From Eledone cirrhosa (taxonomy: Eukaryota), in NCBI GenBank assembly GCA_964016885.1, contig OZ024740.1, forward strand, positions 410,812,001 to 410,876,000: a DNA stretch of 64,000 bases, in the 5' to 3' direction. The notes under the pieces were generated by a model. It made no database searches. It was not told the DNA's origin and saw only the letters and a program-made list of their open reading frames with translations. A program made the position numbers and the translations under genes. This document shows, piece after piece, positions 16,572-58,900 of the stretch. Position 1 is the first letter of the stretch, and each line of letters starts with the position of its first letter.

Positions 16572-16889
16572 GGTTAAAGTGTAAATTCCCTTGTATTTTT
16601 TAAAGGAAGTTATTGGGGAAGATAGAGTAGAAAAAGGAAACGAAGGTGGCTGTGGAGATAGATAGATAGATATATTTCTTTATTTACCATAAAGGCATAA
16701 AAAGAAGGGACAAATACAAAGGGGGAGTTTACATACAATCGAGTAAAAAGGGTATAAAATGAAAATAATCGAAAATAACCTCAAAGGGGAGGGGACGTGA
16801 TGGGGGTTGCACACACCCCCGAAAAAGTGTGCAATCCTTTGCCCGGGGAGCACATGGAGAAGGTGCTCCCCTCTCCTTTACTTCTTTAC

Positions 16890-19800
16890 CTACAGGATGG
16901 TATACAGAGAAGGCCCATTTACACGAGCCATTCTCGCCACTATCACCCACCTTTCATAAAACTGCCTGTGGCCAAGCACCTCTCTCTCCATTCTTATTAT
17001 TCTTCTGAAGTGATATCGGAAGAAGTAGACCAGACTATGGCCAGAGAGGAAGTTACCTGACCTCAGACCTTTCAATCGTGTCCACCAAACAACCTCTTTC
17101 AACATGGCTATTACGCACAGAAAAACCGCTTTTGCTTCCTTTGTGAAGAGGGGAGGCGGTTTGATTGTCATCACGGACTCGGCGGTCAATTGAATCGGCG
17201 CCACCCGCGACAGCAGTCGTTCGGCGTAGCCCCACAGATCAGCCACGCCCGGACATTGCACCAATGCGTGCGCAACGGTTTCTTCGTGACGCACGCATCT
17301 AGGGAAAATCTTTTTTGAGGGATCCCTGCCCGGGCGCCCGTGTCTGTAGAGCCTCTCTCGAACGGGTAGAGCCCTCCGGTAGCACTGCCAGGCTAGTGAC
17401 TTCTGGAAGTTGTCCATTGGTCCCGGGCCGAAAGTTCTACCGAACAGGCTGGCCAGTTCGTCCTCTTCCATGTCCAGCGACTCTCCAAGGGTGTCATCGC
17501 CCCTGCTAGCCACCAGCCCTCTATAGAATGATGAGGTGGATTCTCCACCGACGGCCTGGCCCGCTTGCCAGAGATCCCTGAGCGCCTGAGCACACTCAGT
17601 GTGCCAGTCTCCCAGTTTTCCGGATCTTTGCTTGACCCAGGACTGCAGCTCGGTGAGCGAGACGAGTCTCGGAAAGGCTCCTTTCACGAACGGAGCCCAC
17701 ACCGGTTGACCAGTGAGGAATACCTGTAGGTGCCGTAGCCTTAATGCGGGCCTACGCATCATCAACCGCGGCATCCCCAGCCCTCCTTTCGAAGGTTGTT
17801 GGCAGCAGATGGATCTTCTCACCATAGGAGGGCGATTCTTCCAAAGAAATTGGAAGAGCATGCATTCCATGGTGGTGAGTGTTTCCTTAGGGCAAGGCAC
17901 GACAGTCAGGCGGTAGTAAGTGACGGACGCTATGTAAATGTTCGCCACCTCCGCCCGGCCTTTTAGGGACAGCTTACACTTGGCCCATTTCTGGGTTAGT
18001 GCAAACACCTTGTTCGTAACCTCGTTCCAGTTATTTTCCACCTGGAGGTCCGGTCCAAACCAGACCCCAAGCAACTTTACCGGGCCCTCCGTCCAGTGTC
18101 CGACGACACCGTCGGGAGGCATCGGTCTGCCTCTCCACGTTCCGAGTTGCAGCCCGATGGATTTTTCCCGGTTCAGTTTCGCTGCTGACAACCTTTCGAT
18201 CTCCGAGTCGGTCGATACCATTACTGTTACGTCATCGGCGTAGGCCGACACCGCTTTGCTCAATCCTGGTTCCAGGGGGATACACTGCAACAACTCCAAC
18301 TTCCTCAGTAAAGGCTCGAGAGTCAATACGTACAGAAGGGAGGAGAGAGGGCACCCCTGTCGAATGGATCGTGTTATTTCGAACGGCTTCGAAAGGTAGC
18401 CGTTCACCTTGATCCTAGAACAGATGTGGTTGCTATGTAAGGCAGTGATCCAGCCTCTGAAAACAGGACCGAACCCAGCCGCCGCTAGCACCGCATCCAG
18501 GTAACCATGGTCGACCCTATCGAAGGCCTTAGACTGATCCAAGTTGATCAGGGCCCCACCGAAGGCGGGTTTGTTGCCAACCCTCTCTATGATGTATCGC
18601 ATGAGGTGTAGGTTATCGTGAATGGACCTGGATGGGATAGCACATGTCTGCGCATCTCCCACCAGGCCACCCACGACAAGCGCCAACCTCTTTGCTAACA
18701 CCTTGGTCAAAATCTTTAACTCTGTGTTTAGCAGGGTTATGGGCCGAAAATTATTTATACTATCTCCCTTGTTATCGTCCTTCCTCACCAGCGTGACTAC
18801 GCCCTTGGCTACAGAACAAGGAATTCTCCCGTTCTGCTGCCAATTGCAGTAGACCGCTTCGAGGAGTTCGGAGAAGAAGACCGGCATTGCTAAATAAAGT
18901 TCGTAAGGTATACCATCGAGATCTGGAGATTTGTGTCTGCTGCATTGGCTCAGCGCATCTCCGATCTCATCAGCCGAGATTGGGCCCTCGCAGGACTCTG
19001 CCTCTTCGCTCGAGAGACGCGGCAGGCCGTCGAGGTATGGACCGAAATCCACGTCCCCACTCGGACCCTAGCCTCCCCCGAACAATCGGGCAAAGTGCCT
19101 TTGAAAGGCCTCGCACATCTGCTTAGGCTCCCGGATCACCCGTCCATCTTCGTCTTGCAACGACCGGATGGTGGATCGATTTCCACTCTTAGCTTCTGTC
19201 ACGTGGGCCCAGCCAACGGCTTTGGCCCCCTCATTACCTAGAGCTCGTATTTTACTTCGAATGACGCAGCCTTCGGGCTTTGCATCGAAAAACTGGTTCA
19301 AGGCCGTCCTCGATGCCAGCACTCTGGCCACATCTTCGTTCTTGATTGCCTCTTCTAATTTACCTGTTAATTCTTTCTCGTTTCTATTCCTATCGGCAGC
19401 TAACATCTTGCTGTAACTTATTGATTCTGTTCTAATCTCTCTTTTGAGAGATGCCCACCATCGGTTGTTGACGATTGCACCCGTCAACCTCTCCTTAACT
19501 AATCTGCTAATCCGGTTTCTGTAAGTCTCTTTTGCCGGTAAAGACAAATTAAGTTTCCAGTAACCGGGACACTGTTTATGTGTTTTCTCGAGATTGACTA
19601 CGCAGGTCACTAATTTGTGATCCGTGTAGCCAACCGTGCGCATTTCTGGACAGCTTAATATGTCCCTATCCTTACTTCTAACTAAAAATCTATCTAAGTA
19701 CGATCTAGATTGACCACTGTGGTTTCTCCAAGTCCAGGTAGGCACAGTTGGAAAATTTAGTCGATATCTATCGACCATGTTAAAACGGTCGAGTAACCCC

Positions 19801-20296: not shown

Positions 20297-20329
20297 GTGG
20301 GCGGCAGAGCCAAAGGAGAGTGTAGAGAC

Positions 20330-22233
20330 CTACCTTTCCGCTTCCCGGGGTTCGTGTCGCACGACTTCCATGGGGTCGGGGGTGTTGGGTGAAGGGGTGT
20401 CTTGTGGTGGTGTGGGGTCGTCAGTGTGTGGTGGGGTTGTGGTGTTTGGAGTTGTGTTGGGGAGGGGAAGGGGAGGGGGAAAGCTTTTTAGTAGGACGCG
20501 GTTTATGGGTTTGACAGAGGGTGGTCCTACGTCCTCCTTAAAATCCTTTTTTAGTTTTTGGTAGAGGTTCATTGGGATCTTTATTAATTTTAAATGTGGG
20601 TAGTTTTCTGAAGAAACAAAGTTTACACCTTCGGTTTGTACCGAAGGATTATTGTATATGAGTTCATTTAATTTATTATTGTTTCTGTTGATGTAAGTAT
20701 AGTGTAATGTCTTTTTTTCGGATGGTGTGAGTGTTTCGAAGAGAGGAGGGGCAGGTTTGGTTTTGTTTGTTGCTGAAGGGGTGTTTTCTGTTTTGTTGGA
20801 TTGTGTTGACATTTGGGTGGGGGTTGTTTGGCCTTGTGTGTTTTGCACATGTTTTCTTTTTTTCCTTTTAATCTGTCTGAAGGACTCCGTTTCTTCCTCC
20901 GAATTCGTTGGGTTATCTTCAGTGTTGGAGGGAAGAGGTATGTTTGCTGGTAATGTTTCCGTGTTGGTTTTCTTTGTGGGGGAGATGGATGTCACTATGT
21001 TAGACTGTGTTGTGTGTTGTGTCTGCGGTGGTTGTGTTGTTTTATTGAGTGAGGGGTTGGGTGGGCCTGCATTTTGTTTTGGGGTAATGTTTTGTGACTG
21101 TTTGTGTTGTGGTGGTGGTGTAGTTTTACTGAGGGACGGGTTGGGTGGGACTGAGTTTTGTTGTTTGTTTATCTGTTGTGGTGGTGGTGGTGGAGCTGGT
21201 GTTGGTAGCAGGGTTTTCTTTTTGTTGAGTTGGGGACAAGCGGCCTTCAGGTGCCCTCTGCCTGCACAGATATGACAGGACGGCCTTCTCCCCTCCACGC
21301 TAATGTTTATATACCCGTGGCCCTCTAATAGGATTCTGTCAGGTATTTGGGCGATGCGTTCAGGCTTCATTTGCACTACCAGCTCTATACCTGTTCCACT
21401 GAACGCATTGCCTGTGGTTTTCCCAATGGAAATCACGTTGTCATTCACTGGATCGATGAAGCCAGCTATGAGCCAGCAGTAGTCCACATCTGGCATCATT
21501 GCATCCAGCCATATGCGTTGAGTTCTTTTACCCATATAAGATGGATAAAAGGTAAAATTTTTCGAACGAATCGGTGACAAAGCACATTTTTTTGCCGCCG
21601 ATTCGTTCTTCATAATAATTGCTAGGCTTCCATACAGTCTGTCTTTTCTTATGAAAGTGGTTTCATTAAGTACTTCTGTGAGTACTGTTTTGATATCTGC
21701 TTGAGTTGGTTGTTCAGGTTTTTTTGAAGTGTTGTTGATGGTGCGGAACACGACCGTTCGACTTTCAATGTCTTTGGTGAGTTCTTGAGGCATTTTTACC
21801 GATAAAATACCATTCTCTCCTTCACTTATGTATTGTTTGGCGTCTGTGATTCTTCGTGCCACATCTGAAATATTTTCAGGTATATATGTCAAAGATTTCT
21901 TTGTTGTTTGTGCAATTGAAATCTTGTTGACTTTGTCGTCTGCTTTGCTTTTTGTTATGATGTTGTTTTCAAATGTTATTTTTGTGTTTGTTGTGTCTTT
22001 GTTTGTGGTATTAATATTGTCATGCAATTTTTCAAAATTTTTTTTTCGTTGTTGGAATCCATGTCCAGATTTGTGTTTTCGTCATTTTTTTCCGCAGATT
22101 CGTCTGTTTTTATTTTATTTTTTCCTTCCTTCTCTATGACGTTAGTTGGGAAGGAAGGGGGGACTAAAGCGTGCGAGCTTACAACTCTTACCGCTGCCCC
22201 CCCACCACTATTTTCGTTCGCTTCGTTTAACAT
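20330..22233 (-). CDS. Tx1-A ORF1 (nucleic-acid-binding, zinc knuckle); N-terminus probably frameshifted near 22030
   Basis: 565-aa ORF 20330..22027 with CHICAGRGHLKAAC and a P/T/Q-rich region; overlapping upstream ORF 21976..22233. Confidence 0.8.
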
Positions 22234-22470
22234 TTCTGTCAGACGATTGAAATTTTTTTTGCCACAAAATTTAAAAAAACAGGTTTTTCACCTCTAGGAG
22301 GGGTAAAGATGAGCTGACCCACCGCCTGACAGTTCAGACAGGGGGGGGGGGGTCAAGCTACACAATAGTATCAAAATTAATTTGAACTTACAAAATTTCC
22401 GCAATGAATTTGAACAAAACTTCTGCGCGAAGTGAATTACATCCACACTGTAGAACAGACGACAGCTAGA

Positions 22471-27896: not shown

Positions 27897-27943
<47 letters not shown>

Positions 27944-30900
27944 GTTCTTTGAGTCTCAGTCATTGATGCTAGTTAACTGGAAAGTTTGTTGAAATGAATA
28001 TCAAGCCACTACCTGCAGCCTCAGATATCCAGGACGTATCGGAGGGTTCTTGCTGTTCCCAGCAAGCATGCCTTTTGAAGCGTTCCAAAAGGCACGGCGG
28101 GGCCAATTTTCTTTAACCATCCCTGGAAACTTATTGAGATAGTACCTAGTGCGCCTATGACAAGCGGGACCACTTTGACTTCATGGCAGTTCCAAATCCT
28201 TTTTACCTCCCACTTTAAGTCCTGGTATCGGTTAATTTTCTCCCTCTCCTTCTCTTGCACTCTCGTGTCGAATGGGCAGGCCACATCCACAATCAGGCAC
28301 GATCTTTTTTCTTTGTCCAAAACCACCATGTCAGGTCTATTGTGTTCCAGTTTCTTGTCCGTCTGTATCCTAAAATCCCACAGAACCTTAACCTGATCGT
28401 TTTCTATCACTGACTCTGGCTTATGCTCATACCACTTCTCAGAATGTGGTAAATTGTTTACTTTGCATAGGTGCCAGTGGATCACCCTGCCCATCACATC
28501 ATGTCTCCAGCCCTTATAGTGAGTCTGGGCTAGGTGGTTACACTCGGATACAATGTGAGCCACAGTCTCCTCTCTCTCTCCACAGATCCTGCACAGTGGG
28601 CTAGCCTCCTCCTTGTAAATATGGTGTTTCAACCACTTCGTTTTGAGGGCCTGCTCTTGCGCAGCCATTAACATTCCTTCTGTAGCCTTTTTAAGGTCTC
28701 CTCTTTTCAACCAGTTCCATGTCTGTGGATCTCTGAATTCAGTTTTCTCAAAGAAGGTACTATGAAGGAATTTTTCATGAAGGCTGCTCTTTCTCCTTGT
28801 TGTTATTTCCTCCTTGGACATCCTCTGGTCTATTGTCCTCTCCTTCAGTACAGTTCTGAGCATTGGCTCCTTACTATCAGTCACGTACTTGTGTAGGTTG
28901 TTTTTCTCCATCTGAACACAGTCCTCTATGCTGATAAGACCTCTTCCACCTTCAGATCTCTTCAAGTAGAGTCTATCGACATCACTCCTCTTGTGGAACA
29001 TGTTGTAGATAGTCAATAGCTTCCTAGTCTTCCTATCCATTTCTTTTTATTCAGCAACATTGCATCTCAGAATTCCCGTACTGTACCTAATAATAGACAC
29101 AGCTCGGGAATTTACTGCACTTATGGCATTCCTACTGTTCAGATGTGACTTTAATACGCTCCTTACTCTCCAAATGTATTCAGATCTTATCAATTCCTTC
29201 ATTTTTTTTGTTCTTGATGTCATCAGCCTCCAGAAGACCTAAATATTTGTATCCCACTTCAGTATCAATTTCCTTTATCATCTCACCTATTGGTACCTGG
29301 ATTCTTTTCCTTCTGCTCAATGTACCCCTCTTCATCACAAGGACTCCACACTTACTAATACCAAATTGCATACATATATCATTGCTGAAAATACGGACAG
29401 TGTCAACAAGCACATCCAACTCCTTCTCACTCTTCCCGAAGAGCTTAAGATCGTCCATGAAGAGGAGGTGATTGGTGGTAAGCTCTCCCTTTCCCAACTT
29501 GTATCCTGCTCTCACTTTTCGCAGTATAATGGTCAGGGGCATCATGGCAAGGACAAACAACAGAGGAAACAGACTATCTCCCTGGAAGATACCTCTCTTG
29601 ATCTTCACGCCTCCCAAGGATTCTCCGCTGATGTTAACTCTGTTTTCCAGGACTTCATAATTTTGCCCAAAAACTGCCTGATGTTATCTGCCACCTTGAA
29701 GATCTCTAGGCTTTTGGTGATCCAAGAATGAGGCACCATGTCAAATGCCTTTTTGTTGTCTATCCATCCCATGGCAAGACCAGTGTGTCTCCTCTTGCAA
29801 TTCCTCATTACCATCTTATCAATAAGTAACTGGTCCTTTGTACCACGGGACTTCTTTCGACATCCTTTCTGTTCGTCCGGTAACAAGTTGTTTGTGTGGA
29901 GGTGATGGTAGATTTCCTCAGACATAATGCTTGTCAACAGTTTCCACATTACGGACAGACATGTGATAGGTCTATAGTTGGTAACATCATTACCCATGAT
30001 TCGGTCTTTCATTACCAGAACTGTGATACCTTTTGTCAACCACTCTGGTACCTCACCTGACATCAAGCAGTCATTGAACATGGTTGTCAGTTTCGGGTGG
30101 AGGGATGTTATATTTTTAATCCAATACCCTTGCACACGATCTGGGCCTTGCGATTTCCAGTTGGTTAGTTTTTGGCCTGCCCCTTCAGAGTTTCAACTGT
30201 GATACTCAAATCAGTTTGTTAGTGTGCCTGTTCACTAATCTCCTTCTGTACTGTTTCAATCCACACTGCCTGGTCATTATGTTTAACATCCTGCTCCCAT
30301 ATTCCTCTCCAGAATGTCTTAGTTTGTTCCGCCTCAGGGATCAAGTCGTTGCCTCTTTCTTTCCTTTCAAGCTGTCCAAACAGCATCTTCTGGTTGTTGT
30401 CAAACATGCGGTTCTGTCTATACTGACTGACTCTGCTCGCGTATCGCCTAATTTTTGCACTCTTTGCTACAATGCGTTGCTTCAGTTCCTCTATGATAAT
30501 ATTTAGCTTTTTACTCCTAGTTTTGTACTTTATTTCCTGTCTATTTTTAGTGTCTATGTTTTTTAGTGTACCATTCAGTAGGGACTCAAGCTTTCCAATG
30601 TCATTTCTCATTTCCCTGATTTGACCATTCAGTCGTTTCTTCCACCAAGGTTCTGATCTTTCTTGTTTGTTGTTTCCTCTCGCTTTTATGCCAAGGAATT
30701 TCCTCACCGCATTTGCTGTTGCTTTGAGGATATTGTTGCACTGGTGAAGGCTCCTCGCCTCAAGGTATGGGATGACTTTGTTTACCTTAGCTGTTGTTTC
30801 TTTTAACTTTTTCCTGTCTACAAATCTTAGGTTCATAGGTTTCCCAATATCATTGTTCAATTCATCTACCACTAAGTTTAGGATATCAACCAAATCTTGT

Positions 30901-31590
30901 CCTAGCCCGTCAGCATTCATCTCCTCAATGGCCGTATCTTTATTCCAGGTATTATTTATCTCAGCATTCAGATTATTGTCTGCTTCGGATGGTTCCTCCG
31001 TTCTCTCAACCTCTTCACCTTCATTTCCCACTGACTAGTTTGCCTGGCATACTCCACTCTCCATTTCCAACCTAATCTCTCTGCTCAGTTCCTCCAGTTC
31101 CAGCTCGCTTATCCACCCATTAGTTCTTATTACCCGAGCCAGCCCGGCCAATTTTTGTTCCTCTAATTTAAATAGACCAATCTCGTTCCAGATGTTATGC
31201 ATCCGTTTCCTATAGCCTTTCTCCTTGGGGTTACTCTTCAGGTAACATTGCATAACAGTTCTATTCAATTCTTTCGTCCAGTTGGTTCTGGTCCCTTTCC
31301 TTCTTCTCCTTCCTCCGACACCAGCAGTATTTGGTTGACAGCCAGGTCCCTGCTGCTGAGCCAGGGAGCACCTGCAGGGTGAGAGTCTGTCACATGACAT
31401 TCTAGTCTCCACTTCACCGTTATTCGAACTGTTTAGGTTCGACGGTGATTTTGGTGTGGCACTATCAGAGCTGTAGACGAACATAAATAAACAAACAGGC
31501 AAATAGGTAAAAAAAAAACAAAAAAGAGTTTTTCAAATGCTTTTATAGGTACATTCTTGTCTATTGGAACGGACATATCAATTAGCAGGC

Positions 31591-31592
<2 letters not shown>
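27944..31592 (-). mobile_element. R4/Dong-clade non-LTR element copy 1, degenerate
   Basis: Fragmented ORFs homologous to the 1130-aa ORF: QGDSL, FMDD, CRICGE..HIVSEC, RPD..D..K restriction-like endonuclease; (TAA)n tail. Confidence 0.9.
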
Positions 31593-31627
<35 letters not shown>

Positions 31628-31713
31628 GTTATTGTTATTCCTTGAATCTCAGTCATTGATGTTGGTTAACTGGAAAGTCCGTTGGATTGAATATCAAGCC
31701 ACTACCTGCAGCC

Positions 31714-34700
31714 TCAGATATTCAGGACGTATCGGAGGGTTCTTGCTGTTCCAAGCAAGCATGCCTTTTGAAGCGTTCCAAAAAGCGTGAAGGGGCCGAT
31801 TTTCTTTAACCATCCCTGGAAACTTTTGGAGATAGTCCCCAGTGCGCCTATGACAATCGGGATCACTTTGACTTCATGGCAGTTCCAAATCCTTTTCACC
31901 TCCCACTTTAGGTCCTGGTATCGGTTAATTTTCTCCCTCTCCTTCTCTTGCACTCTCGTGTCGAACGGGCAGGCCACATCCACAATCAGGCACGATATTT
32001 TTTCTTTGTCCACAACCACCAGGTCAGGTCTATTGTGTTCCAGTTTTTTGTCCGTCTGTATCCTAAAATCCCACAGCACCTTCACCTGATTGTTCTCCAT
32101 CACCGCCTCTGGCCTATGCTCATACCATTTCTCAGAATGTGGTAGATTGTTTACTTTGCACAGGTGCCAGTGGATCACCCTGCCCATCACATCGTGTCTC
32201 CAGCCCTTATAGTGGGTCTGGGCTAGGTGTTTACACTCGGACACAATGTGAGCCACAGTCTCCTCTCTCTCTCCACAGATCCTGCACAGTGGGCTGGCCT
32301 CCTCCTTGTAGATATGGTGCTTCAACCACTTCGTTTTGAGGGCCTGCTCCTGCGCAGCCATTAGCATTCCTTCTGTAGCCTTTTTGAGGTCTCCTCTTCT
32401 CAACCAGTTCCATGTCTGTGGATCTCTAAATTCAGTTTTCTCAAAGAAGGTACTATGAAGGGGTTTTCCCTTAAGGCTGCTCTTCCTCCTTGATGTTATT
32501 TCCTCCCTGGACATCCCCTGGCCTACTGTCCCCTCCTTCAGTACAGCTCTGAGCATTGGCTCCTTACTATAGGTCACGTATTTGTATAGGTTGTTTTTCT
32601 CCATCTGAACACAGTCCTCTATGCTGATAAGACTTCTTCCACCCTCAGATCTCCTTAGGTAGAGTCTATCGACATCACTCCTCTTGTGGAACATGTTGTA
32701 GATAGTCAATAGCTTCCTAGTCTTCCTATCCATTTCTTTCTGTTCAGCAACATTCCATCTCAGAATTCCCGCACTGTACCTAATAATAGACACAGCTCGG
32801 GAATTTACTGCGCTTATGGCATTTCTGCTGTTCAGATGTGACTTCAATACGCTCCTTACTTTCCGAATGTATTCAGTTCTTAACAATTCCTTCATTTTTT
32901 TGTTCTTTATGCCATTAGCCTCCAGAACGCCCAAATACTTGTATCCTTCCTCAGAGTCAATTTCCTTTATCATCTCACCTGTTGGTATCTGGATCCCGTT
33001 ACTTCTGCTCAACCTACCCCTCTTCATCACAATGACTCCACATTTACCAATACCAAACTGCATACATATATCACTGCTGAAAATACGGACAGTGTCAACA
33101 AGCACATCCAACTCCTTCTCACTTTTCCCGAAGAGCTTAAGATCGTCCATGAAGAGGAGGTGATTGATGGTAAGCTCTCCCCTTCCCAACTTGTATCCTG
33201 CTCTCACTTTTCGCAGCATAATGGTCAAGGGCATCAGGCCAAGGACAAACAACAGAGGGGACAGGCTATCTCCCTGGAAGATACCTCTCTTGATCTTCAC
33301 GCTTCCCAAGGATACTCCAGTTGATGTCAACTCTGTCTCCCAGGACCCCATACTCCTGCCTAGCAACTGTCTGATGTTATCCGCCACCCTGAAGATCTCC
33401 AGGCTTTTGGTGATCCAGGAATGAGGCACCATGTCAAATGCCTTTCTGTAGTCTATCCATCCCATGGCAAGATCAGTGTGTCTCCTCCTGCAATTCCCCA
33501 TTACCATCTTATCAATAAGCAACTGGTCCTTTGTACCACGTGACTTCTTTCGGCATCCTTTCTGTTCGTCCGGTAACAAGTTGTTTGTGTGGAGGTGATG
33601 GTAGATTTCCTCAGACACAATGCTCGTCAACAGTTTCCACATTACGGGCAGACATGTGATAGGTCTATAGTTGGTAGCATCATTACCCTTGATTCGGTCT
33701 TTCATTATCAGAACTGTGGTACCTATTGTCAACCACTCTGGCACCTCACCCGACACCAAGCAGTCATTGAACATGGCCGTCAGCTTCGGGTGGAGGGATG
33801 TTAGATGTTTAATCCAATACCCCTGCACACCATCTGGGCCTGGTGATTTCCAGTTGGTTAGTTTTTTGGCTTGCCCCTTAAGAGTTTCAACTGTGATACT
33901 CAAATCAGTCTGTTGCTGTGCCTGCTCACCGATCTCCCTCTGTACTGTCTCAATCCACCCTGCCTGGGCATTGTGTCTAACATCCTGCTCCCATATTCCT
34001 CTCCAGAATGTTTTAGTTTGCTCCGCCCCAGGGATCAAGTCGTTGCCTCTTTCTTTGCCCTCAAGCTGTCCAAACAGCATCTTCTGGTTGTTGTCGAACA
34101 TGCGGTTCTGTTTATACTGACTGACTCTGTTCTCGTATCGCCTGATTTTTGCACTCTTTGCTACAATGCGTTGCTTCAATTCCTCTATGATAATATTTAG
34201 CTTTTTACTCCTAGTTTTGTATTTTATTTCCAGTCTATTTTTAGTGCCTATGTTTTTTAGTGTCCCATTCAGTAGTGGCTCAAGCTTTCCTATGTCATTT
34301 CTCATTTCCCCGATTTGCCCACTCAGTCGCTTCTTCCACCACGGCTCTGCTCTTTCTTGTCTGTTGTTTCCTCTCGCTTTTATACCAAGTAGTTTCCTCA
34401 CCGTATTTGCTGTTGCTCTGAGGATATTGTTGCACTGGTGAAGGCTCCTCGCCTCAAGGTATGGGATGACTTTGTTTACCTTAGCTGTTGTTTCTTTTAA
34501 CTTTTTCCTGTCTACAAATCTTAGGTTCATAGGTCTCCCACTATCATTGTTCAATTCATCTACCACTAAATTTAGGATGTCAACCGAATCTTGTCCTAGC
34601 CCGTCAGCATTCATCTCCTCAGTGGCCGTATCTCTGTTCCAGGTATTATTTATCTCAGTACTCAGATCATTGTCTGCTTCGGGTGGTTCCTCCGTTCTCA

Positions 34701-35106
34701 GGACCTCCTCACCTTCATTTCCCACCGGCTCGCTTGTCTGGCATACTACACCCGCCATCTCCAAGCCATTCTCTCTGCTCAGTTCCTCCAGTTCCAGCTC
34801 GCTTATCCACCCATTAGTTCTTATTACCCGAGCCTGCCCGGCCAATTTTTGTTCATCTAATTTAAATAAACCAATCTCGTTCCAGATGTTATGCATCCGT
34901 CTCCTGTAGCCCCTCTCCTTGGGGTTACTTTTCAGGTAGCATTGCATAACAGTTCTATTCAATTCTTTCGTCCAGTTGGTTCTGGCCCCTTTCCTTCTTC
35001 TCCTTCCTCCAACATCAGCAGTATTTGGTTGACAGTCAGGTTCCTGCTGCTGAGCCAGGGGGCACCTGTTGGGTGAGAGTCTGTCACATGACGTTCTAGT
35101 CTCCAT
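31714..35106 (-). CDS. R4/Dong-type RT + restriction-like endonuclease polyprotein, 1130 aa
   Basis: N-terminal WTKELN..CY..GYRRRM..IW; KSPGPDG, YRPITCL, DYRKAFD, GIFQGDSLSP, FMDD; CRICGEREETVAHIVSEC, RHD, HNRPDL..IVDVACP..EKINRYQDL. Confidence 0.92.
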   Translation of the reverse strand: METRTSCDRLSPNRCPLAQQQEPDCQPNTADVGGRRRRKGARTNWTKELNRTVMQCYLKSNPKERGYRRRMHNIWNEIGLFKLDEQKLAGQARVIRTNGWISELELEELSRENGLEMAGVVCQTSEPVGNEGEEVLRTEEPPEADNDLSTEINNTWNRDTATEEMNADGLGQDSVDILNLVVDELNNDSGRPMNLRFVDRKKLKETTAKVNKVIPYLEARSLHQCNNILRATANTVRKLLGIKARGNNRQERAEPWWKKRLSGQIGEMRNDIGKLEPLLNGTLKNIGTKNRLEIKYKTRSKKLNIIIEELKQRIVAKSAKIRRYENRVSQYKQNRMFDNNQKMLFGQLEGKERGNDLIPGAEQTKTFWRGIWEQDVRHNAQAGWIETVQREIGEQAQQQTDLSITVETLKGQAKKLTNWKSPGPDGVQGYWIKHLTSLHPKLTAMFNDCLVSGEVPEWLTIGTTVLIMKDRIKGNDATNYRPITCLPVMWKLLTSIVSEEIYHHLHTNNLLPDEQKGCRKKSRGTKDQLLIDKMVMGNCRRRHTDLAMGWIDYRKAFDMVPHSWITKSLEIFRVADNIRQLLGRSMGSWETELTSTGVSLGSVKIKRGIFQGDSLSPLLFVLGLMPLTIMLRKVRAGYKLGRGELTINHLLFMDDLKLFGKSEKELDVLVDTVRIFSSDICMQFGIGKCGVIVMKRGRLSRSNGIQIPTGEMIKEIDSEEGYKYLGVLEANGIKNKKMKELLRTEYIRKVRSVLKSHLNSRNAISAVNSRAVSIIRYSAGILRWNVAEQKEMDRKTRKLLTIYNMFHKRSDVDRLYLRRSEGGRSLISIEDCVQMEKNNLYKYVTYSKEPMLRAVLKEGTVGQGMSREEITSRRKSSLKGKPLHSTFFEKTEFRDPQTWNWLRRGDLKKATEGMLMAAQEQALKTKWLKHHIYKEEASPLCRICGEREETVAHIVSECKHLAQTHYKGWRHDVMGRVIHWHLCKVNNLPHSEKWYEHRPEAVMENNQVKVLWDFRIQTDKKLEHNRPDLVVVDKEKISCLIVDVACPFDTRVQEKEREKINRYQDLKWEVKRIWNCHEVKVIPIVIGALGTISKSFQGWLKKIGPFTLFGTLQKACLLGTARTLRYVLNI

Positions 35107-35408
35107 TTCACCGTTATTCGAACTGTTTATGTTCGATATTTAAACACTCTTATCGAGGATTGGCGAATGTATGTTTACATAGCCATCTGTGGATCCGCCA
35201 TCCCACTTGGCCCTTGTGTGGCATTATCACCACGCTGTATACGAACACACATAAACAAACAAACACACAGGCAGAAAGGGCCCCAGAAATGAATAAGCAT
35301 AAGTTTCATTGTAATGTAGTGTTCGAATGTCTGACTTAGTTTTAGTTTTTTAAGTTTTACTTTTTCCCCCCTCTTCTCTGTCCGTCCGCCTGCTTCTCTC
35401 TTCATTCT

Positions 35409-38028: not shown

Positions 38029-41000
38029 AAAGAAAAAAAGAAAAAAAAAGAAAAAAAGAAAAAAAGAAAAAAAGAAAAAAAGAAAAAAAGAAAAAAAGAA
38101 AAAAAGAAAAAAAGAAAAAAAGAAAAAAAGAAAAAAAGAAAAAAAGAAAAAAAGAAAAAAAAAATTCTCTTCCTTCCCCCTCCAAAAACAAAATACAGAG
38201 GGAAACAAATAAACTATCAAACAAAAAAGTTAGGACAGATATGCCACCATCCAGACCAGCATCACCAACCCCATCACCCCAAACACCAACACCATCACCA
38301 TCATTAACCCCAACACCACCATCAACTACACCACAAAAGTCACCAAAATGCGAAACAGAAACAAACCCACAACAAACACAAACAAAACAAAACAACCAAA
38401 AACGATACACACTACACAGCATTAAATTTGAACAACAACCAATTATTACACTATATCCAACACAACACCAGCATCACAGAAAAAGACTACACAACAACCC
38501 AAAAGTTCACACCACCTCCACACATACAAATCACTCGCATCACAAACGTACATGATACTAAAACAAAAATTACCCAAAGACATCGGAGACTTCCGACAAG
38601 CACTCTCCAGGAGGATTTATAAGGATATCCTTCCTGAGGAGGCCACAAGCAGTGAAAAGGATGGAGAAACCGTCCTTCCTCTACGAGAAGTAAGGTAAGT
38701 GGTCTTTCCCATCTTATCCACTCCATTTCAACATGACCTCACTCAGAATAGGCAGCATAAATGCGCGTGGCTTGAGGTCGTCATGGAAGCAGGGTCACCT
38801 GCTCAACGACCTCAGGTCACTAAACATAGATGTAGTGGCCATCAGCGAGACCAGAATCTCCGAAGCACGGGCCTTCGCACCGATCTTCGGCGGCTACAAT
38901 GTGTACGCATCTCCCAGCCGTCCGGGATCGGGGGGAAGAGTTGCTGTGATTTTTCGGAGAGGTTTGGATCTTGCCATACGGGCCATCTTCCTGGACCCAG
39001 AAGGTAAGTTGGTGGTGCTAGACGTGACCAGCGGAGACGGGCAAGCTTTCAGGTTAGTGGCCGTCTATGCCCCGACAGGAGCAGGGCGGCCTGATTTCTT
39101 CCGGCGTCTGGAGACTTTCTTGGAACGTCCCGCTCTTTAGCGTTAGTGGGCGACTAGAACGGGATCTTAGATGCACGCTGAGACTGTGTGGGATTAGTGG
39201 ATAGGGGAGGAGGGTGCAAGAGTCTCACCAACCTGCTCAGACGTTTTGAACTGACTGTCTGACAGGTACCGATTGGATTTCCCGAATGTGCCAATGTGGA
39301 CTTGGAAAAATCGTATGGAGTCATCCAGATCATATCTAGATAGAGTATTTTGTAGGGAAATAGATAGGTCTAGCATAGGCTGTCCACAATTCAAGATAGT
39401 CAGCTACAAGGAACACAAATTCGTGATCTGTGTGCTTGACTTAGATAGGCTTCATAGACGAGGACTCGGCTACTGGAAGCTAAACGCGTCCTTACCAGCG
39501 CGCAAGGCCTACAGAGAACGGATTAGCGAACTAGTTAAGTGAGCGCTGACGGGGGCCATCGTCAACAACAAGTGGTGGTTTGCTCTGAAAAGAGCAATTA
39601 GAATAGAGTCCATTAGGTTTAGTAAGGCTTTAGCAATAGAGAAAAATAGAGCAGAGGGAGAATTAGTTAGAAAATTAGACGAGGCGCTTAGCAAAGGCAT
39701 CGCGACCGACGTATTTGCGGCGAAATTGGGTCTTGACCAATTCTTCAATGCAAAGGACGAAGGCTGCGTTGTCAGAGCTAGCGGGCGTGCTCTCAGACAT
39801 GAGGGGACGAAAGCCGTTCAATGGGCCCGAGTGGCGGAGGCGCGTCGTGGCAACAAAGCCACGATGCGGTCTTTGGTGGACCACGACGGGCGCATGCTAC
39901 TCGATGCCGGGCAAATGTGTGAAGCTTTTCAGCGACACTTCGCACAGCTGATCGGGGGCAGCGGCGGGCCGGATCGAGGGATGGACTTTAGTGTCTACCT
40001 CGACGGACTGCCGCGGCTATCGGCCACTGAGGCGGAGTGTTGCGAAAAGCCGATAACAGCCGCTGAAGTACGGGAGGCAATAACTGGCTGCACAAGGGGT
40101 AAATCGCCTGGTTTGGATCATATCCCCTATGAACTTTACGTACAGATGCCAGACTTGTTCGGAGGCCTCTTGGCGGACGTCTGCTGCAACTGGCAACAGA
40201 ACGGGAGAATTCCCAGCTCTATGAGCCGAGGAGCTGTGGCGCTGCTGAGAAAGGATCCGAACAAGGGGGATAACAGATAATTTCAGGCCCATAACTCTGC
40301 TAAACACAGTGTTCAAGATTTTGGCCAAGGTGCTAGCAAAGAGGTTGGCGCTTGTCGTTGGTGGTCTGGTGGGAGTGGCTTAGACATGCGCCATTCCCGA
40401 CAGATTCATCCACGACAACCTCCACCTCATGCGATACATCGTAGAGAGGGTAGCTAGGGAACCTGGCACGGGTGGGTCCTTGTTCAATTTAGATCAGTCG
40501 AAAGCTTTCGATAGGGTCGACCATCGTTACCTAGCGGCAGTCCTGAGGGCGGCTGGCTTTGGGCCCGTCTTCAGAGGCTGGATCGCTGCCATGCACAGCG
40601 ACATCTGCTCTGTGGTGAGAGTGAACGGTCACCTTTCGGAACCGTTCAACATCATGCGCTCTGTCCGCTAAGGATGTCCCCTCTCGTCCCTCTTGTGCGT
40701 ATTGACTCTCGAGCCATTACTGCACAAACTGGAGACGTTGAGGGGGTTCCCGTGCTAACTAGGATGCGGAAGATCCGTGTCAGCATATGCGGACGATGTC
40801 ACCGTAGTGGTGTCGAACGCCAAACACATCGAGGTGATCGGCAGTACACTAAGAGAATACGAAGCGGTGACAGGAGCAATGATCAACCAGGAAACGTCAG
40901 TGGGCCTGCAGCTCGGCACCTGGAGAGGCAGGTTCATGCCCTCCAACAGCATCGTCATGCCCGCCAACAGCATCGTCTGGCTTTGACAGTTCGGGATAAA

Positions 41001-49633: not shown

Positions 49634-52600
49634 CCCCACCACCACCACATCGACAACATAAACAAATGAAAAAATAAATTTACTCGTGATATCAAAATGA
49701 ATTCAACCAAAATGAACTCTTCCACACCGAACACCACTGACGCCACTACCACCACAACTGAAACTAAAATTAACAATAACAAAAATAACGATAACAACAA
49801 TAGCAACAATGAAATTAAAAAACCACCCTGAGTTTTGCCAGAGTAGCAAAACAGTGCGAAGCATTTCAGGTAACCCAGGAGGAATTAGAAGAAGCCAAAA
49901 AAATGGTGAAGAAAGATGGGTACAGGGTCAGCCTCACTCCCCCCCCCCAACCTAATAAAATGGAGCATCGGCGCCTATGCACCGTGTCTTATCGAACAAT
50001 TAACATAAAATCGCGCCGAGTGGAACAGGCATCCGAGTCCCAAACCCGAAAAGCTTTGTCACATGTGTGGGCAAAAAAATCCCACATCAGACGTGGGCAG
50101 AAATATGGAACAGTGGACGTGTTCTTTGAAACACCACAGGAGGCTAGATAACACTCCATGGCCCTATTAAGAAGTGACGACTTCACACTCGTCCCAAGCT
50201 ATTGTGGCCAGAGACTCGTAAAGATCAGGATGACCCACGTTCCACCGGCCATCAAAATTCCCTGGCTAATGGCTGCCGTCCTCGCCGGCATCGAAGCCAA
50301 GACCAAGATAATCGAAATAGCGAAATAAAAGCAGGAGAACTGGTCCGGATCTGGGATGGAGCTCCTGATCCAAGCGGTCCAATAAAGCATTGAGGAGATC
50401 CCAGAGGTAATAGACCTCACTGACGGCAGCCACCTCACCGTAATCGTCGAGGGCAGAAGGCATAGGTGTGTCGTTTGTGGTGAAGGAACCCACCTAAGGG
50501 CTTTCTGCCCTCGGGCTAAAAGGTTGAGGCCACATCTCTTACCCACCCCAGTGACTCAACCATCAACACCACCAGCAGCAGAGATGGCAGCAACAACTGT
50601 AGCAGCAACAACAGAAGCAACTGTAACAGCAACAACACCAGCAACAGTAGCAAAACCCCCACCCCCACCACCAACGCGCTAGAACTAGCACCAGCGCCTA
50701 CACCATCCACCACGCCACAACCAAAACCAACGCCTGTAGAGGATTTTCCACTCCCCGGCCTATCACAACTGGAGACAGATTGTGACGACGAGGAGTCGGA
50801 AACGGTATCAGGAAAAAAGAAAAACAGAAACCAAAAAAGAAAAGATTCTCTTCCTTCCCCCTCCAAAAACAAAATACAGAAGGAAACAAATAAACTATCA
50901 GACAAAAAAGTTAGGACAGATATGCCACCATCCACACCAGCATCACCAACCCCATCACCACAAACACCAATCCCATCACCATCAATAACCCCCAACACCA
51001 CAAAAGTCACCAAAAAGCAAAACAGAAACAAACCCACAACAAACGCAAATATAACAAAACAACCAAAATGATACACACTACACAGCATTAAATTTGAACA
51101 TCAAGGGGCGGTGAATTGGCAGTATTGGTAGTGGGTCGGACGGCATGCTTTGACGCATGGAGTTACGGCCCTTGCCATTCTGAGTTCAAATCCCGCCGAG
51201 GTTAACTTTGCCTTTCATCCTTACGGGGTCGATAAAATAAAGTACCAGTAATGTACTGGGTAATTGCTGGCCTTGTGCCAAAAGAAGAAACAATTAAATT
51301 TGAAGTACAAACAATTATTACACTACATCCAACACAACACCAGCATCACAGAAAAAGACTACACAACAACCCAAAAGTTCACACCACCTCCACACATACA
51401 AATCACTCGCATAACACAGAAAACCTACACGACACTAAAACAAAAATTCCCCAAAGACATCGGAGACTTCCGACAAACACTCTCCAGGAGGATTTATAAG
51501 GAAATCCTTCCGGAGGAGGCCACAAGCAGTGAAAAGGATGGGCAAACCTTCCTTCCTCTACGAGAAGTAAGGTAAGTGGTCTTTCCCATCTTTTCCACAC
51601 CATTTCAACATGACCTCACTCAGAATAGGCAGCATAAATGCGCGTGGCTTGGGGTCGTCATGGAAGCAGGGCCACCTGCTCAACGACCTCAGGTCACTAA
51701 ACATAGATGTAGTGGCCATCAGCGAGACCAGAATCTCCGAAGCACGGGCCTTCGCACCGATCTTCGGCGGCTACGATGTGTACGCATCTCCCAGCCGTCC
51801 GGGATGGAGGGGGGGGGGGGGAGAGTTGCTGTGCTTTTTCGGAGAGTTTTGGATCTCGCCATACGGGCCATCTTCCTAGACCCAGAAGGTAAGTTGGTGG
51901 TGCTGGACGTGACCAGCGGAGACGAGCAAGCTTTCAGGTTAGTGGCCGTCTATGCTCCGACAGGAGCAGGGTGGCCTGATTTCTTCCGGCGTCTGGAGAC
52001 CTTTCTTGGAACGTCCCGCTCTTTAGTGTTAGTGGGCGACTGGAACGGGATCTTAGATGCACGCTCAGGCGTTTTGAACTGTCTGACAGGTACCGATTGG
52101 ATTTTCCGAATGTGCCAATGTGGACTTGGACACATCGCAGAGGGTCATCCAGATCATATCTAGATAGAGTATTTTGTAGGGAAATAGATAGGTCTAGCAT
52201 AGGCTGTCCACAATTCAAGATAGTCAGCTACAAGGAACACAAATTCGTGATCTGTGTGCTTAACTTAGATAGGCTTCATAGACGAGGACTCGGCTACTGG
52301 AAGCTAAACGCGTCCTTACCAGCGCGCAAGGCCTACAGAGACCGGATTAGCGAACTAGTTAAGCGGGCGTTGAAGGGGGCCATCGTCAACAACAAGTGGT
52401 GGTTTTCTCTGAAAAGAGCAATTAGAATAGAATCCATTAGGTTTAGTAAGGCTTTAGCAATAGTGAAAAATAGAGCAAAGGGAGAATTAGTTAGAAAAAT
52501 AGACGAGGCGATTAGCAAAGAAATCGCGACCGACGTACTTTCGGCAAAATTGGGTCTTGACCAATTCTTCAATGCAAAGCACGAAGGCTGCGTTGTCAGA

Positions 52601-55279: not shown

Positions 55280-55885
55280 GAATGCCATGGTTGATGGAGG
55301 CTCGGCTCTGTAAGGTATAGTAATTTTTAACCGCTACAACAATTGTAAATTGTTTAAAACTTTAACCAAATTGTAGATAAAAACATCCTCCTACTCGTGA
55401 GAGGGGTCTTTCTCCCCGTTATTTGGCCCTTCGGAGTTAAATAACCGCTTATTGGGGTTTTGTGCCCAATATTTATTTTAAACCAAAAAGATACATGGCT
55501 ACAAAAAAGAATTTTCACAATTCTTCTTCTTCCTCAATCGTCACTACATCAGAGAGAAGATTGTCTCTCTCCCTCCCTTCTCTAAATGGGGTGTCGCCTC
55601 TTTCGCAAGCGACGCCATTAAAGGAAAAGAAAAATAGTTTCTGATAGATTCCAAGAGCACGTGCATACCGTGGAACATTTCTCCACGACGACGACAACGA
55701 CGAAAAATGTGTGCGGTAAATACGGAAAGCCATTTCATTCGACTGACGTCATGAAGAATAGCAGTAGCAACCGTAATAACAGCAGCAGCAGCAACAGTGA
55801 TAAGGAAAACAACAGTAGCAGCCGCAACAACATCATCAGCAGCATAAACAACAACATCATCATCATCAGCAGCAGCAGCAGCATA

Positions 55886-55916
<31 letters not shown>

Positions 55917-58900
55917 ACAACAGCAGCAGAAACAACAACAACAACAACCACAGCAACAGCGGCGGCGGCGGTCGCAGTACCAGCAGCAACAACAAAAGTA
56001 ACAGCAGCTCTGACGACAACAATAACCAACAAGAAAGAAAAAACCAATCTCGTTTGCAGGTATCGCAAAGAACCTGGAAACCATCCTTATAACAAATGAG
56101 GAAGTACAGGAAGCAAAGAAGATGGTGACGAAAACGGGACACCAAGCAATCTGCAAGGCAGCCGAAATATCTTTCGAAACCCAACAGCATTGTACGGTCA
56201 CGTTGCCGTACAGTAAGCACAAAACATGTAGTGTTGAAAGACCCACAGAGGCTCAAATACAAAAAGCCTTAGGGTCTGTGTGGCAGCGGAAAACGCATAT
56301 CACCCGAGGCAAGAAATATGCCACACCCCAGGAGGCAAAGGCTCAATCGTTAGTGACCCTAAGGAGCGAGGAAATGGTGTTGGTGCCCTCCTACTGCAGG
56401 CAAAAAATTGTGAGGGTCAAACTGACCCCCCCCGCCGGGATGGCCGATTCTTAGCTGGCCGCGTCTGTCCTCGTCGGAATCAAGGACAAAACAACTGTAC
56501 TGCAAGTACAGAAAAAAGTACGAGAAGATTGGGTCGGCACCTCCATTGAGATGTTAATCCAAACCAACCAGGAGTGCATCGAAGCTATCCCGGATGTTAT
56601 AGATTTCGATAACGGCACTTAACTGCCCACAAGTGTTGAGGGCAAACGCCCGAAATGCTTTCGATATGGATCGAAGACTCACCTCAGGGCCTTCTGCAAT
56701 GAGAACACGCTGAGAAAGGAGAAAACCTCCTTTCTTCCGAAACCGGCTCCACTGCTACCAGCAACAGGACAGGCGGCAAACAGGAAGAATAGGTCCGTGG
56801 CACCCATACCCACGCCACGGAAATCAAGAACAGCAGCAGCAGTGGAAGTATTAACAACAACAACAATAATACCAACTGCAGCTGCAACAGAGACTCCACT
56901 GCAAACATCATCAACAACAACAAGTGAAAGAGTGGAGCTGGTACCCCTCCCCGACCTCACAGATTCGGACATGGAGTGTGAGGTGGGAGAGGGATGGCAA
57001 AAGGTCGTAAGAAGGCACAAACGCAGAAACAGCGTATGTCGCCTTCGAAAAGGGAGGAAAGAAATGAAAAAAGGGTAAAGGCTACTGCAAAGAGACTTAC
57101 AGCAGCAACACCACCAACACCATCACCACCCACACACGCACCACCATCACCACCGGCGGCAATCCCACCGCAAACAACAACAACACCTTCAACACCACCA
57201 CCACAAGCACTAACAGCGCAAACACAACAAAACACACACACCCAGCAACAACGACAAGAAAATAGTAGAACCCCACCCCACCCCCAGAAAAACAAATGCA
57301 CAGCAATAAATACACACAACAAGAAACTAATGACTTACATAATTGAACACACAGACATTTCACATCACGACTACATAATACCAGCACCAATCAAAACACC
57401 AACGAACATAAGACTGGTAAGAATAGCACAAAAACAATACACAAACAATAAAACGAAATTCCCCAACGCAGTTGGTGATTTCAGAGACCTAGGAGGGACA
57501 CTCAATCGGAGAGTATATTCGGATATACTCACAGAAGAGCCGACGACCAGCCGAAGGGAAGATTCAACGGTCCCTTCACCAGACGATCAAGTGAAAAGGG
57601 ATGGAGAAACCATCCTTCCTCTACGAGAAGTAAGGTAAGTGGTCTTTCCCATCTTTTCCACTCCATTTCAACATGACCTCATTCAGAATAGGCAGCATAA
57701 ATGAGCGTGGCTTGGGGTCGTCATCGAAGCAGGGCCACCTGCTCAACGACCTCAGGTCACTAAACATAGATATAGTGGCCATCAGCAAGACCAGAATCTC
57801 CGAAGTACGGGCCTTCGCACCGATCTTCGGCGGCTACGATATGTACGCATCTCCCAGCCGTCCGGGATCGGGGGGGGGGGGGAGTTTCTGTGCTTTTTCG
57901 GAGAGGTTTGGATCTCGCCATACGGGCCATCTTCCTGGACCCAGAAGGTAAGTTGGTGGTGCTGGACGTGACCAACGGGGATGGGAAAGCTTTCAGGCTA
58001 GTGCCCGTCTATGCCCCGACAGGAGCAGGGCGGCCTGATTTCTTCCGGCGTCTGGGGACCTTTCTAGGAACGTCCCGCTCTTTAGTGTTAGTGGGCGATT
58101 GGAACGGGATCTTAGATGCACGCTGGGATTGTGTGCGATTAGCGGATAGGGGAGGAGGGTGTAAGAGCCTCACCAACCTGCTCAGGCGTTTTGAACTGTC
58201 TGACAGGTACCGATTGGATTTCCCGAATGTGCCAATGTGGACTTGGACAAATCGCATAGAGTCATCCAGCTCATATCTAGATAGAGTATTTTGTAGGGAA
58301 ATAGATAGGTCTAGCATAGGCTGTCCACAATTCAAGATAGTCAGCTACATGGACCACAAATTCGTGATCTGTGTGCTTGACTTAGATAGGCTTCATAGAC
58401 GAGGACTCGGCTACTGGAAGCTAAACGCGTCCTTACCAGCGCGCAAGGCCTACAGAGACCGGATTAGCGAACTAGTTAAGCGAGCGTTGACGGGGGACAT
58501 CGTCAACAAAAAGTGGTGGTTTGCACTGAAAAGAGCGATTAGAATAGAGTCCATTAGGTTTAGTAATGCTTTAGCTATAGAGAAAAATAGAGCAGAGGGA
58601 GAACTAGTTAGAAAATTAGAGGAGGCGCATAGCAAATAAATCGCGACCGCCGTACTTTCGGCGAAATTGGCCCTTGACCAATTCTTCAATGCAAAGCACG
58701 AAGGCTGCGTTATCAGTGCTAGGGTGCGTGTTCTCAGACACGCGGGGACGAAAGCCGTTCAATGGGCTCGAGTGGCGGAGGCGCGTCGTGGCAACAAAGC
58801 CATGATCCGGTCTTTAGTGGACCACCACGGGCGCATGCTACTCGATCCCGGGCAAATATGTGAAGCTTTTCACACATTTCCCCCGGGTCGCACAGTTGCT

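Follow-up and report, generated by a model that had tools for sequence, protein, structure and literature searches.

Two-ORF LINEs of the window and their relatives

The window, by which we mean the whole analysed stretch of 64,000 nucleotides from Eledone cirrhosa (assembly GCA_964016885.1, genome 3.0 Gb; contig OZ024740.1, positions 410,812,001 to 410,876,000), contains two-ORF LINEs of families A and B, in which the stop codon of ORF1 lies inside a sequence resembling a 5′ splice site (Table 1). An intact ORF2 of the related lineage E1 matched the Pfam families PF03372, PF00078 and PF13966. The domains of ORF2, an APE-type endonuclease, a reverse transcriptase (RT) and a C-terminal zf-RVT, are those of the L1/Tx1 group of non-LTR elements; the match of E1 ORF2 to human L1 ORF2 endonuclease structures was weak. 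Moreover, ORF1 is separate and a C-x2-C-x4-H-x4-C knuckle was read directly in that of A and E1, which again agrees with the L1/Tx1 group, a separate ORF1 with a CCHC knuckle being described as typical of the Tx1 type (PMC5203782). No family was assigned to ORF1 in a Pfam search, no relative was found in a protein search with the ORF1 core, and a first metagenome scan and a viral scan gave no matches. The closest relatives share about 40% identity with these elements, and none of them is a named animal Tx1 reference. The Tx1 clade is known for target preferences such as microsatellites; here, the 3′ ends of the elements pass into (TATC)n or (ATT)n, which may be tail or target, and a number of truncated copies lie inside such repeats.

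Table 1. Positions of the LINE features in the window (slash, exon-intron boundary of the candidate donor)
Feature	Position	Strand	Remarks
Family A ORF2 end	16881..16915	-	TAG (16892-16890) then GTAAAG; candidate acceptor restoring the Arg-stop of ORF1
Family A donor	20328..20336	-	AAG/GTAGGT with ORF1 stop TAG; ORF2 ATG 20296-20294
Family A ORF1	20330..22081	-	583 codons stop to stop; C-x2-C-x4-H-x4-C knuckle
CAG upstream of the B donor	38650..38652	+	44 nt upstream; directly precedes the B breakpoint of the B3 chimera
Donor, copy B1	38692..38700	+	AAG/GTAAGT holding ORF1 stop TAA (38696-38698); GT at 38695
Inter-ORF spacer	38699..38732	+	pyrimidine-rich (74-81% C/T in 12 lineages); CAAC-type context before ATG
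ORF2 start codon MTSLRIGSINARGL	38733..38735	+	
First downstream AG	38744..38746	+	proposed acceptor, start of a conserved Arg codon; no copy found spliced
Candidate distal acceptor, ORF2 nt 415	39125..39147	+	YTAG; pyrimidine-richest of 120 conserved AG columns
Donor, copy B2	51569..51577	+	AAG/GTAAGT; GT at 51572
B3 chimera junction	57585..57600	+	last J-type base 57591, -1 of the J donor; B-type from 57592
Donor at ORF1 stop, copy B3	57632..57640	+	AAG/GTAAGT; GT at 57635

With degenerate ORF2-start patterns and 133 genomic stretches, 13 lineages were collected (A, B, C, D, D2, E1, E2, E3, F, G, H, I and J), of which F, H and I are represented by one copy each; I was phased by homology and the D2 copies disagree on phase. 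E1 includes copies with both ORFs intact (ORF1 of 643 and ORF2 of 1,145 codons), and in family A the two ORFs share one frame already in the unspliced sequence. Full-length elements occur in head-to-tail arrays with a period of about 5.9-6.1 kb (loci L058, L063, L072, L073, L290 and L291), their units spaced by (TATC)n or (ATT)n; arrays of mixed families were found at L062, L200, L208 and L288. At the C-terminus of ORF1 in A, C, D, E, F, G and H, a MEIV/MEVE/MDIV motif lies 12-15 codons before the stop, and this Met-acidic-hydrophobic pattern stays conserved inside an otherwise low-complexity tail. The 5′UTR of family A contains a second donor-like GTAAGT at 22386-22391 (minus strand); GTRAGT is also found upstream of ORF1 in C, D, E1 and E3 (L056, L061, L063 and L067), and the corresponding place in family B reads AAAG/GTTTGT. 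The 3′UTR following the ORF2 stop, for example at 16700-16889 (minus strand), comprises a purine-rich run, two hairpin-like inverted repeats and an AATAAA, and the hairpin arms appear to vary together between lineages, as judged by eye and from single-sequence folds. Silent-site conservation within ORF2 is highest at about nt 1530-1630, the start of the RT domain, where the best 8-site window reaches 0.90, a value falling within the shuffle range (95th percentile 0.93). In addition, the window holds at 27900-35139 (minus strand) a tandem pair, 92% identical, of an unrelated single-ORF RT element, one copy of which is open over 1,141 codons (31714-35139).

A candidate donor conserved at the ORF1 stop

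It had been proposed from the sequence alone that the ORF1 stop of family B lies in a donor AAG/GTAAGT, that the first AG downstream of the ORF2 start is its acceptor, and that removal of this 51-52-nt intron from some transcripts could give an ORF1-ORF2 fusion protein, the same layout being present in family A. The layout itself was confirmed. The CAG ends at 38746, 51623 and 57686 in B1, B2 and B3, and taking out the 52 nt would bring LREV-R and IGSINARGL together in one frame; in family A, the AAG/GTAGGT at 20333 (minus strand) is followed after 51 nt by an AAG, likewise in frame, so that GT...AG ends with a donor consensus are present in both. Nonetheless, the in-frame outcome in A and B does not represent two independent cases, since each donor sits within an AGG-stop (phase 2) and each AG starts the same conserved Arg codon (phase 2), which belongs to an endonuclease strand near the ORF2 start.

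The expectation that the donor motif would be kept in related families was borne out, as G/GTRRGT is present at the ORF1 stop in all 13 lineages (12 aligned, together with J). Among the 12 aligned lineages, G at -1, G at +1, T at +2, G at +5 and T at +6 are invariant, +3 and +4 are purines throughout, and the sequence is variable from +7 onward. By comparison, of 49 four-fold sites compared in the first 1.4 kb of ORF2, only 8 never vary, and the pairwise four-fold identity among lineages is 43-96%. Positions +5 and +6 are non-coding in the eight lineages whose donor is in phase 2 (A, B, C, E2, E3, F, G and H), and the motif survives the ORF1 frame shifts that leave it in phase 1 in D, D2, E1, I and J. 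The ORF1 stop is always found within 8 nt of the donor, on its intron side. By a crude ad hoc score of U1 pairing, the donor ranks 1-4 among the 242-340 GT sites per element in 11 elements. The string AGGTRRGT is in itself no rarity, being seen 18 times in the window against about 7 expected, many of these in repeat copies; what exceeds chance is its fixed place at the ORF1 stop.

Of 53 metagenomic L1/Tx1-like loci, 17 reach the ORF2 start and 15 of them have an upstream ORF end, none with a donor there; the best donor score among these relatives was 14, compared to 17-21. The absence of the motif from distant relatives indicates that the 13 cases share one origin, and the evidence is thus one of retention and not of repeated invention. 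Judging from this sequence comparison, the ORF1 stop probably carries a working 5′ splice site.

Possible acceptors and competing explanations

The proposed fusion of the two ORFs is highly improbable. A paired-motif search for precisely spliced copies found none joined in family B versus 2,526 unspliced, which sets a 95% upper bound of 0.12% on the spliced fraction, and none joined in family A, where the approximate denominator is 1,135 candidates. A fused RNA encodes RT and should therefore be copied in cis, yet no such copy was found beside the 2,526; in human L1, splices have left about 2% of the full-length copies (131 of 6,609; PMC5860796). The first AG is indeed in frame in all eight phase-2 lineages, including E2, E3 and G in which that AG is not the Arg codon, and the E lineages show a strong pyrimidine tract and a CAG before the ATG. 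Against this, cutting at the near AG is out of frame in all five phase-1 lineages and hence in 5 of 13, even in E1 with both ORFs intact; the distance from donor to first AG is unconserved (26-61 nt), the pyrimidine tract adjoins the donor and the nearby AG is usually the conserved endonuclease Arg codon. As phase varies between lineages, fusion is not what the lineages conserve, and for the RNA that gets copied, the fusion intron is largely refuted by these sequence counts. What stood of the interpretation in the sequence-only reading are its two alternatives, a distal acceptor and a U1 site, which the evidence favours.

Wider searches from the exon end agree with this picture. Where the B exon end is followed by a second base other than T, 61 rows corresponding to 40 distinct places were recovered, none spliced, and the equivalent searches in A, D and E1 (5, 12 and 13 places) gave only point changes or deletions. 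Such searches miss exons starting with NT, and a trailing ambiguity letter D in the pattern drops about a quarter of the matches; a complementary exon-end search (6 more matches, none spliced) covers part of the NT-start gap, as do the searches for ORF2 loss and for the nt-415 join described below. The exon-end searches in families B and A and in lineages D and E1 found no other donor-to-AG join. For contigs from runs of unknown kind compared with B and with A, the 15 joints listed per family (84 more exist for B and 96 for A) include neither of the predicted ones, a result that carries no weight on expression.

The explanation we prefer, tentatively and from sequence, is that the donor is a working 5′ splice site that would be joined to a distant acceptor, yielding an ORF1-only mRNA and no fusion. 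U1 would bind the candidate donor, and a fraction of the transcripts would lose the ORF2 start or the whole ORF2, supplying extra ORF1 protein as the spliced gag RNA of copia elements does, while the donor would stay unspliced in the RNA that gets copied. ORF2 may be translated from this unspliced RNA via reinitiation at the ATG lying 25-47 nt after the donor. An ORF1-only RNA encodes no reverse transcriptase and so would rarely be copied back. The best candidate acceptor may be the stop codon of ORF2 itself, a TAG in 12 of 13 lineages (B ends in TAA). In 9 of 11 lineages, a donor joined to it would meet a stop within one codon in its own phase (exact permutation 15/330, p=0.045, which overstates the case as the lineages are related), and it restores the stop in 3 of the 4 recognised J 3′ ends. 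However, this acceptor fails in E2 and G, is absent in B, and is weak, its pyrimidine content ranking 18 among the 120 conserved AG columns; neither a clear branch point nor significant constraint on silent sites was seen at the ORF2 end. No copies lacking exactly ORF2 were found among the A, C, E and F types searched, as would be so if an RNA that lacks RT rarely gets copied, yet this gives no support. A second stop in another frame follows 1-2 nt after the ORF2 stop as the majority form at every lineage end read, these comparisons being made on raw sequences; B has such a back-up stop after its TAA, which implies that stops of this kind need no splicing.

Another candidate lies at ORF2 nt 415, where the AG is kept in all 11 covered lineages by use of a Leu codon ending in A, a rare choice (2 of 82 all-Leu columns); joining the donor to it would give a fusion in the phase-1 lineages and a stop in the phase-2 lineages. 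No copies spliced from the donor to this site were found. A U12-type branch point TTTAAC was also considered and dropped, being absent by eye from A, B, F and G.

Distal splicing would account for a donor window that is invariant while only 8 of 49 four-fold ORF2 sites are, for a motif kept through ORF1 frame shifts, and, in 9 of 11 lineages, for the in-phase stop that a join to the ORF2 end restores. It has a precedent in the Arabidopsis element EVD, where a conserved donor near the gag end is described as serving both a gag-only RNA and U1 protection of the full-length RNA (PMC5580714). Weighing against distal splicing, the searches found no genomic copy spliced from the donor to the ORF2 end (A, C, E and F types) or to nt 415, and in human L1 a few spliced copies mobilised in trans do occur (PMC5860796). 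Perhaps U1 snRNP binds the motif without productive splicing and curbs premature polyadenylation in the A-rich ORF1 or aids elongation, the chimera described below being a rare accidental use of the donor. We regard this as rather unlikely, yet it would explain why the donor is conserved with no fixed acceptor or phase, why no spliced copies were found and why five lineages have a second GTRAGT in the 5′UTR, and U1 has a described protective role in EVD (PMC5580714). In fact, polyadenylation hexamers lie mostly upstream of the donor, within 500 nt of it in 6 of 8 elements, which would suit a role of U1 alone. Yet hexamers are expected by chance in an ORF1 of 40% A, E1 and H have none nearby upstream, the ORF2 downstream of the donor is almost free of them, and U1 binding alone gives no reason for the invariable place of the ORF1 stop, within 8 nt of the donor and on its intron side.

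Alternatively, the motif could be kept for a reason outside the spliceosome, such as a context for termination and reinitiation, a DNA-binding site, or Arg-stop coding combined with inheritance, which we judge quite unlikely. The human L1 5′UTR donor is reported to be kept because it is inside a RUNX3 site (PMC5860796), the ORF2 stop, too, often precedes GT, the phase in E1 and D may have shifted recently, and distant L1/Tx1-like relatives are without the motif, which leaves a single ancestor for all cases. Nevertheless, conservation covers exactly the window that pairs with U1 and stops at +6, the break of the B3 chimera sits on the -1/+1 boundary, and no internal start site was seen. The last point was looked at together with the possibility of a spliceosomal cleavage product, and both were rejected as 5′ ends do not pile up in the spacer: 4 of 27 matches are 5′-truncated inside it, at scattered places, and none at +1.

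The B3 chimera and comparison with known systems

LINE families often swap their 5′UTR and ORF1, and one such swap is visible within the window. Copy B3 (55500-57700) has an ORF1 unlike that of B1; it consists of the 5′UTR and ORF1 of lineage J, ending exactly at the J donor and joined to B sequence after a CAG. Where J reads GATCAAG then GTAAGT, B3 reads GATCAAG then TGAAAAGG, and in B, TGAAAAGG follows the CAG situated 44 nt upstream of the B donor. J and B3 are 84-88% identical over about 2.3 kb up to -1 in 7 of 16 J loci, the remaining loci being mostly truncated or broken (L269 and L272 are truncated upstream), and B3 ORF2 is 94-96% B-like in most copies. The 100 matches listed divide into 40 that go on with the J donor and 60 that go on with the B tail. 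There are 2,398 B3 junctions, some of them in 6-kb tandem arrays, and intact copies exist among the B3 and J loci L266-L291, as at L290 (ORF1 of 713 and ORF2 of at least 1,120 codons). Locus L288 has a J copy followed 5.4 kb downstream on the same strand by a B copy, the layout that a cis splice needs. Other recombinant or nested copies were noted at L060, with a D-type junction and a B-type 3′ end, and at L211, with a B-type junction and a D2-type 3′ end.

In B3, the final stretch of homology, about 45 nt long, occurs two times, with an extra G setting the frame; given this duplication, B3 did not arise by homologous recombination. A read-through RNA could have been spliced from the J donor to the B CAG and then copied in cis, and on this sequence evidence splicing at the J donor likely created the B3 family of about 2,400 copies, an exact join at J's donor that favours distal splicing. 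Template switching could give the same join, and B3 is a single event that was recognised only in hindsight; its two sides share an AG of 2 nt, and the pyrimidine tract before the B-side CAG is poor. A chance switch at the shared AG, with about 3 positions in 100 tolerated, has a probability of a few percent. A template jump onto a free 5′ exon, an alternative route, would also need the spliceosome. Among the 100 matches listed of 2,398, none carried extra donor bases at the junction, nor was there an intermediate of a two-step origin, in which a switch at a shared AGTGA would be followed by later slippage. Taking distal splicing to its full extent, the whole of ORF2 would be an optional intron, the donor at the ORF1 stop being spliced to the ORF2 stop codon to give the ORF1-only mRNA, and splicing in mixed arrays might breed new LINE families, as in B3, through read-through RNA in which the promoter and ORF1 of one family are spliced onto the ORF2 of another. 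We consider this combined, sequence-derived proposal unlikely.

LINEs are thought to make both of their proteins from one unspliced RNA. Mammalian L1 and SART1 resemble the present elements in having a bicistronic RNA with a short spacer between the ORF1 stop and the ORF2 ATG (63 nt in L1), across which reinitiation is a known route to ORF2; the part of that account consulted mentions no splice donor at the ORF1 stop (PMC5972666), and reinitiation would apply here by analogy only. The literature searched, which did not include subscription journals, Repbase entries or supplements, showed no donor at an L1/Tx1 ORF1 stop.

The closest parallel may be EVD, a Ty1/Copia element in which, as here, the structural-protein part ends close to a conserved U1-type donor; its unspliced full-length RNA is reported to dominate while splicing gives an mRNA for the structural protein only (PMC5580714). 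EVD differs in that it belongs to the LTR elements, has a single gag-pol frame and a short intron, and couples splicing to early polyadenylation (PMC5580714), whereas the two ORFs studied here are already split by a stop, no early polyadenylation signal is conserved and splicing is putative. The copia-like feature that is found here is a donor conserved where the structural ORF ends; if this donor is selected, a LINE could balance structural against catalytic protein as copia elements do.

Human L1 is likewise a LINE with a conserved, rarely used donor whose spliced RNAs can be copied into the genome; that donor is in the 5′UTR and is kept for the RUNX3 site, and the spliced products are described as dead ends (PMC5860796). 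By analogy, it serves as a warning that a donor may be conserved for another reason. In the present elements, by contrast, it is the ORF1 stop that carries the donor, and the sole join found founded a family with intact copies. A further comparison is offered by mRNA/LINE-1 chimeras, for which cis or trans splicing before copying was proposed and whose upstream parts are reported to end at splice donors and to join the LINE, sometimes at an acceptor; these involve host exons and single or few insertions (bioRxiv 10.1101/2025.02.02.635956). Unlike them, B3 has LINEs as both partners, has exchanged an entire 5′UTR and ORF1 and counts about 2,400 copies, and an ORF1 swap that landed exactly on a splice donor and founded a family of this size points to a concrete mechanism by which such swaps may occur.
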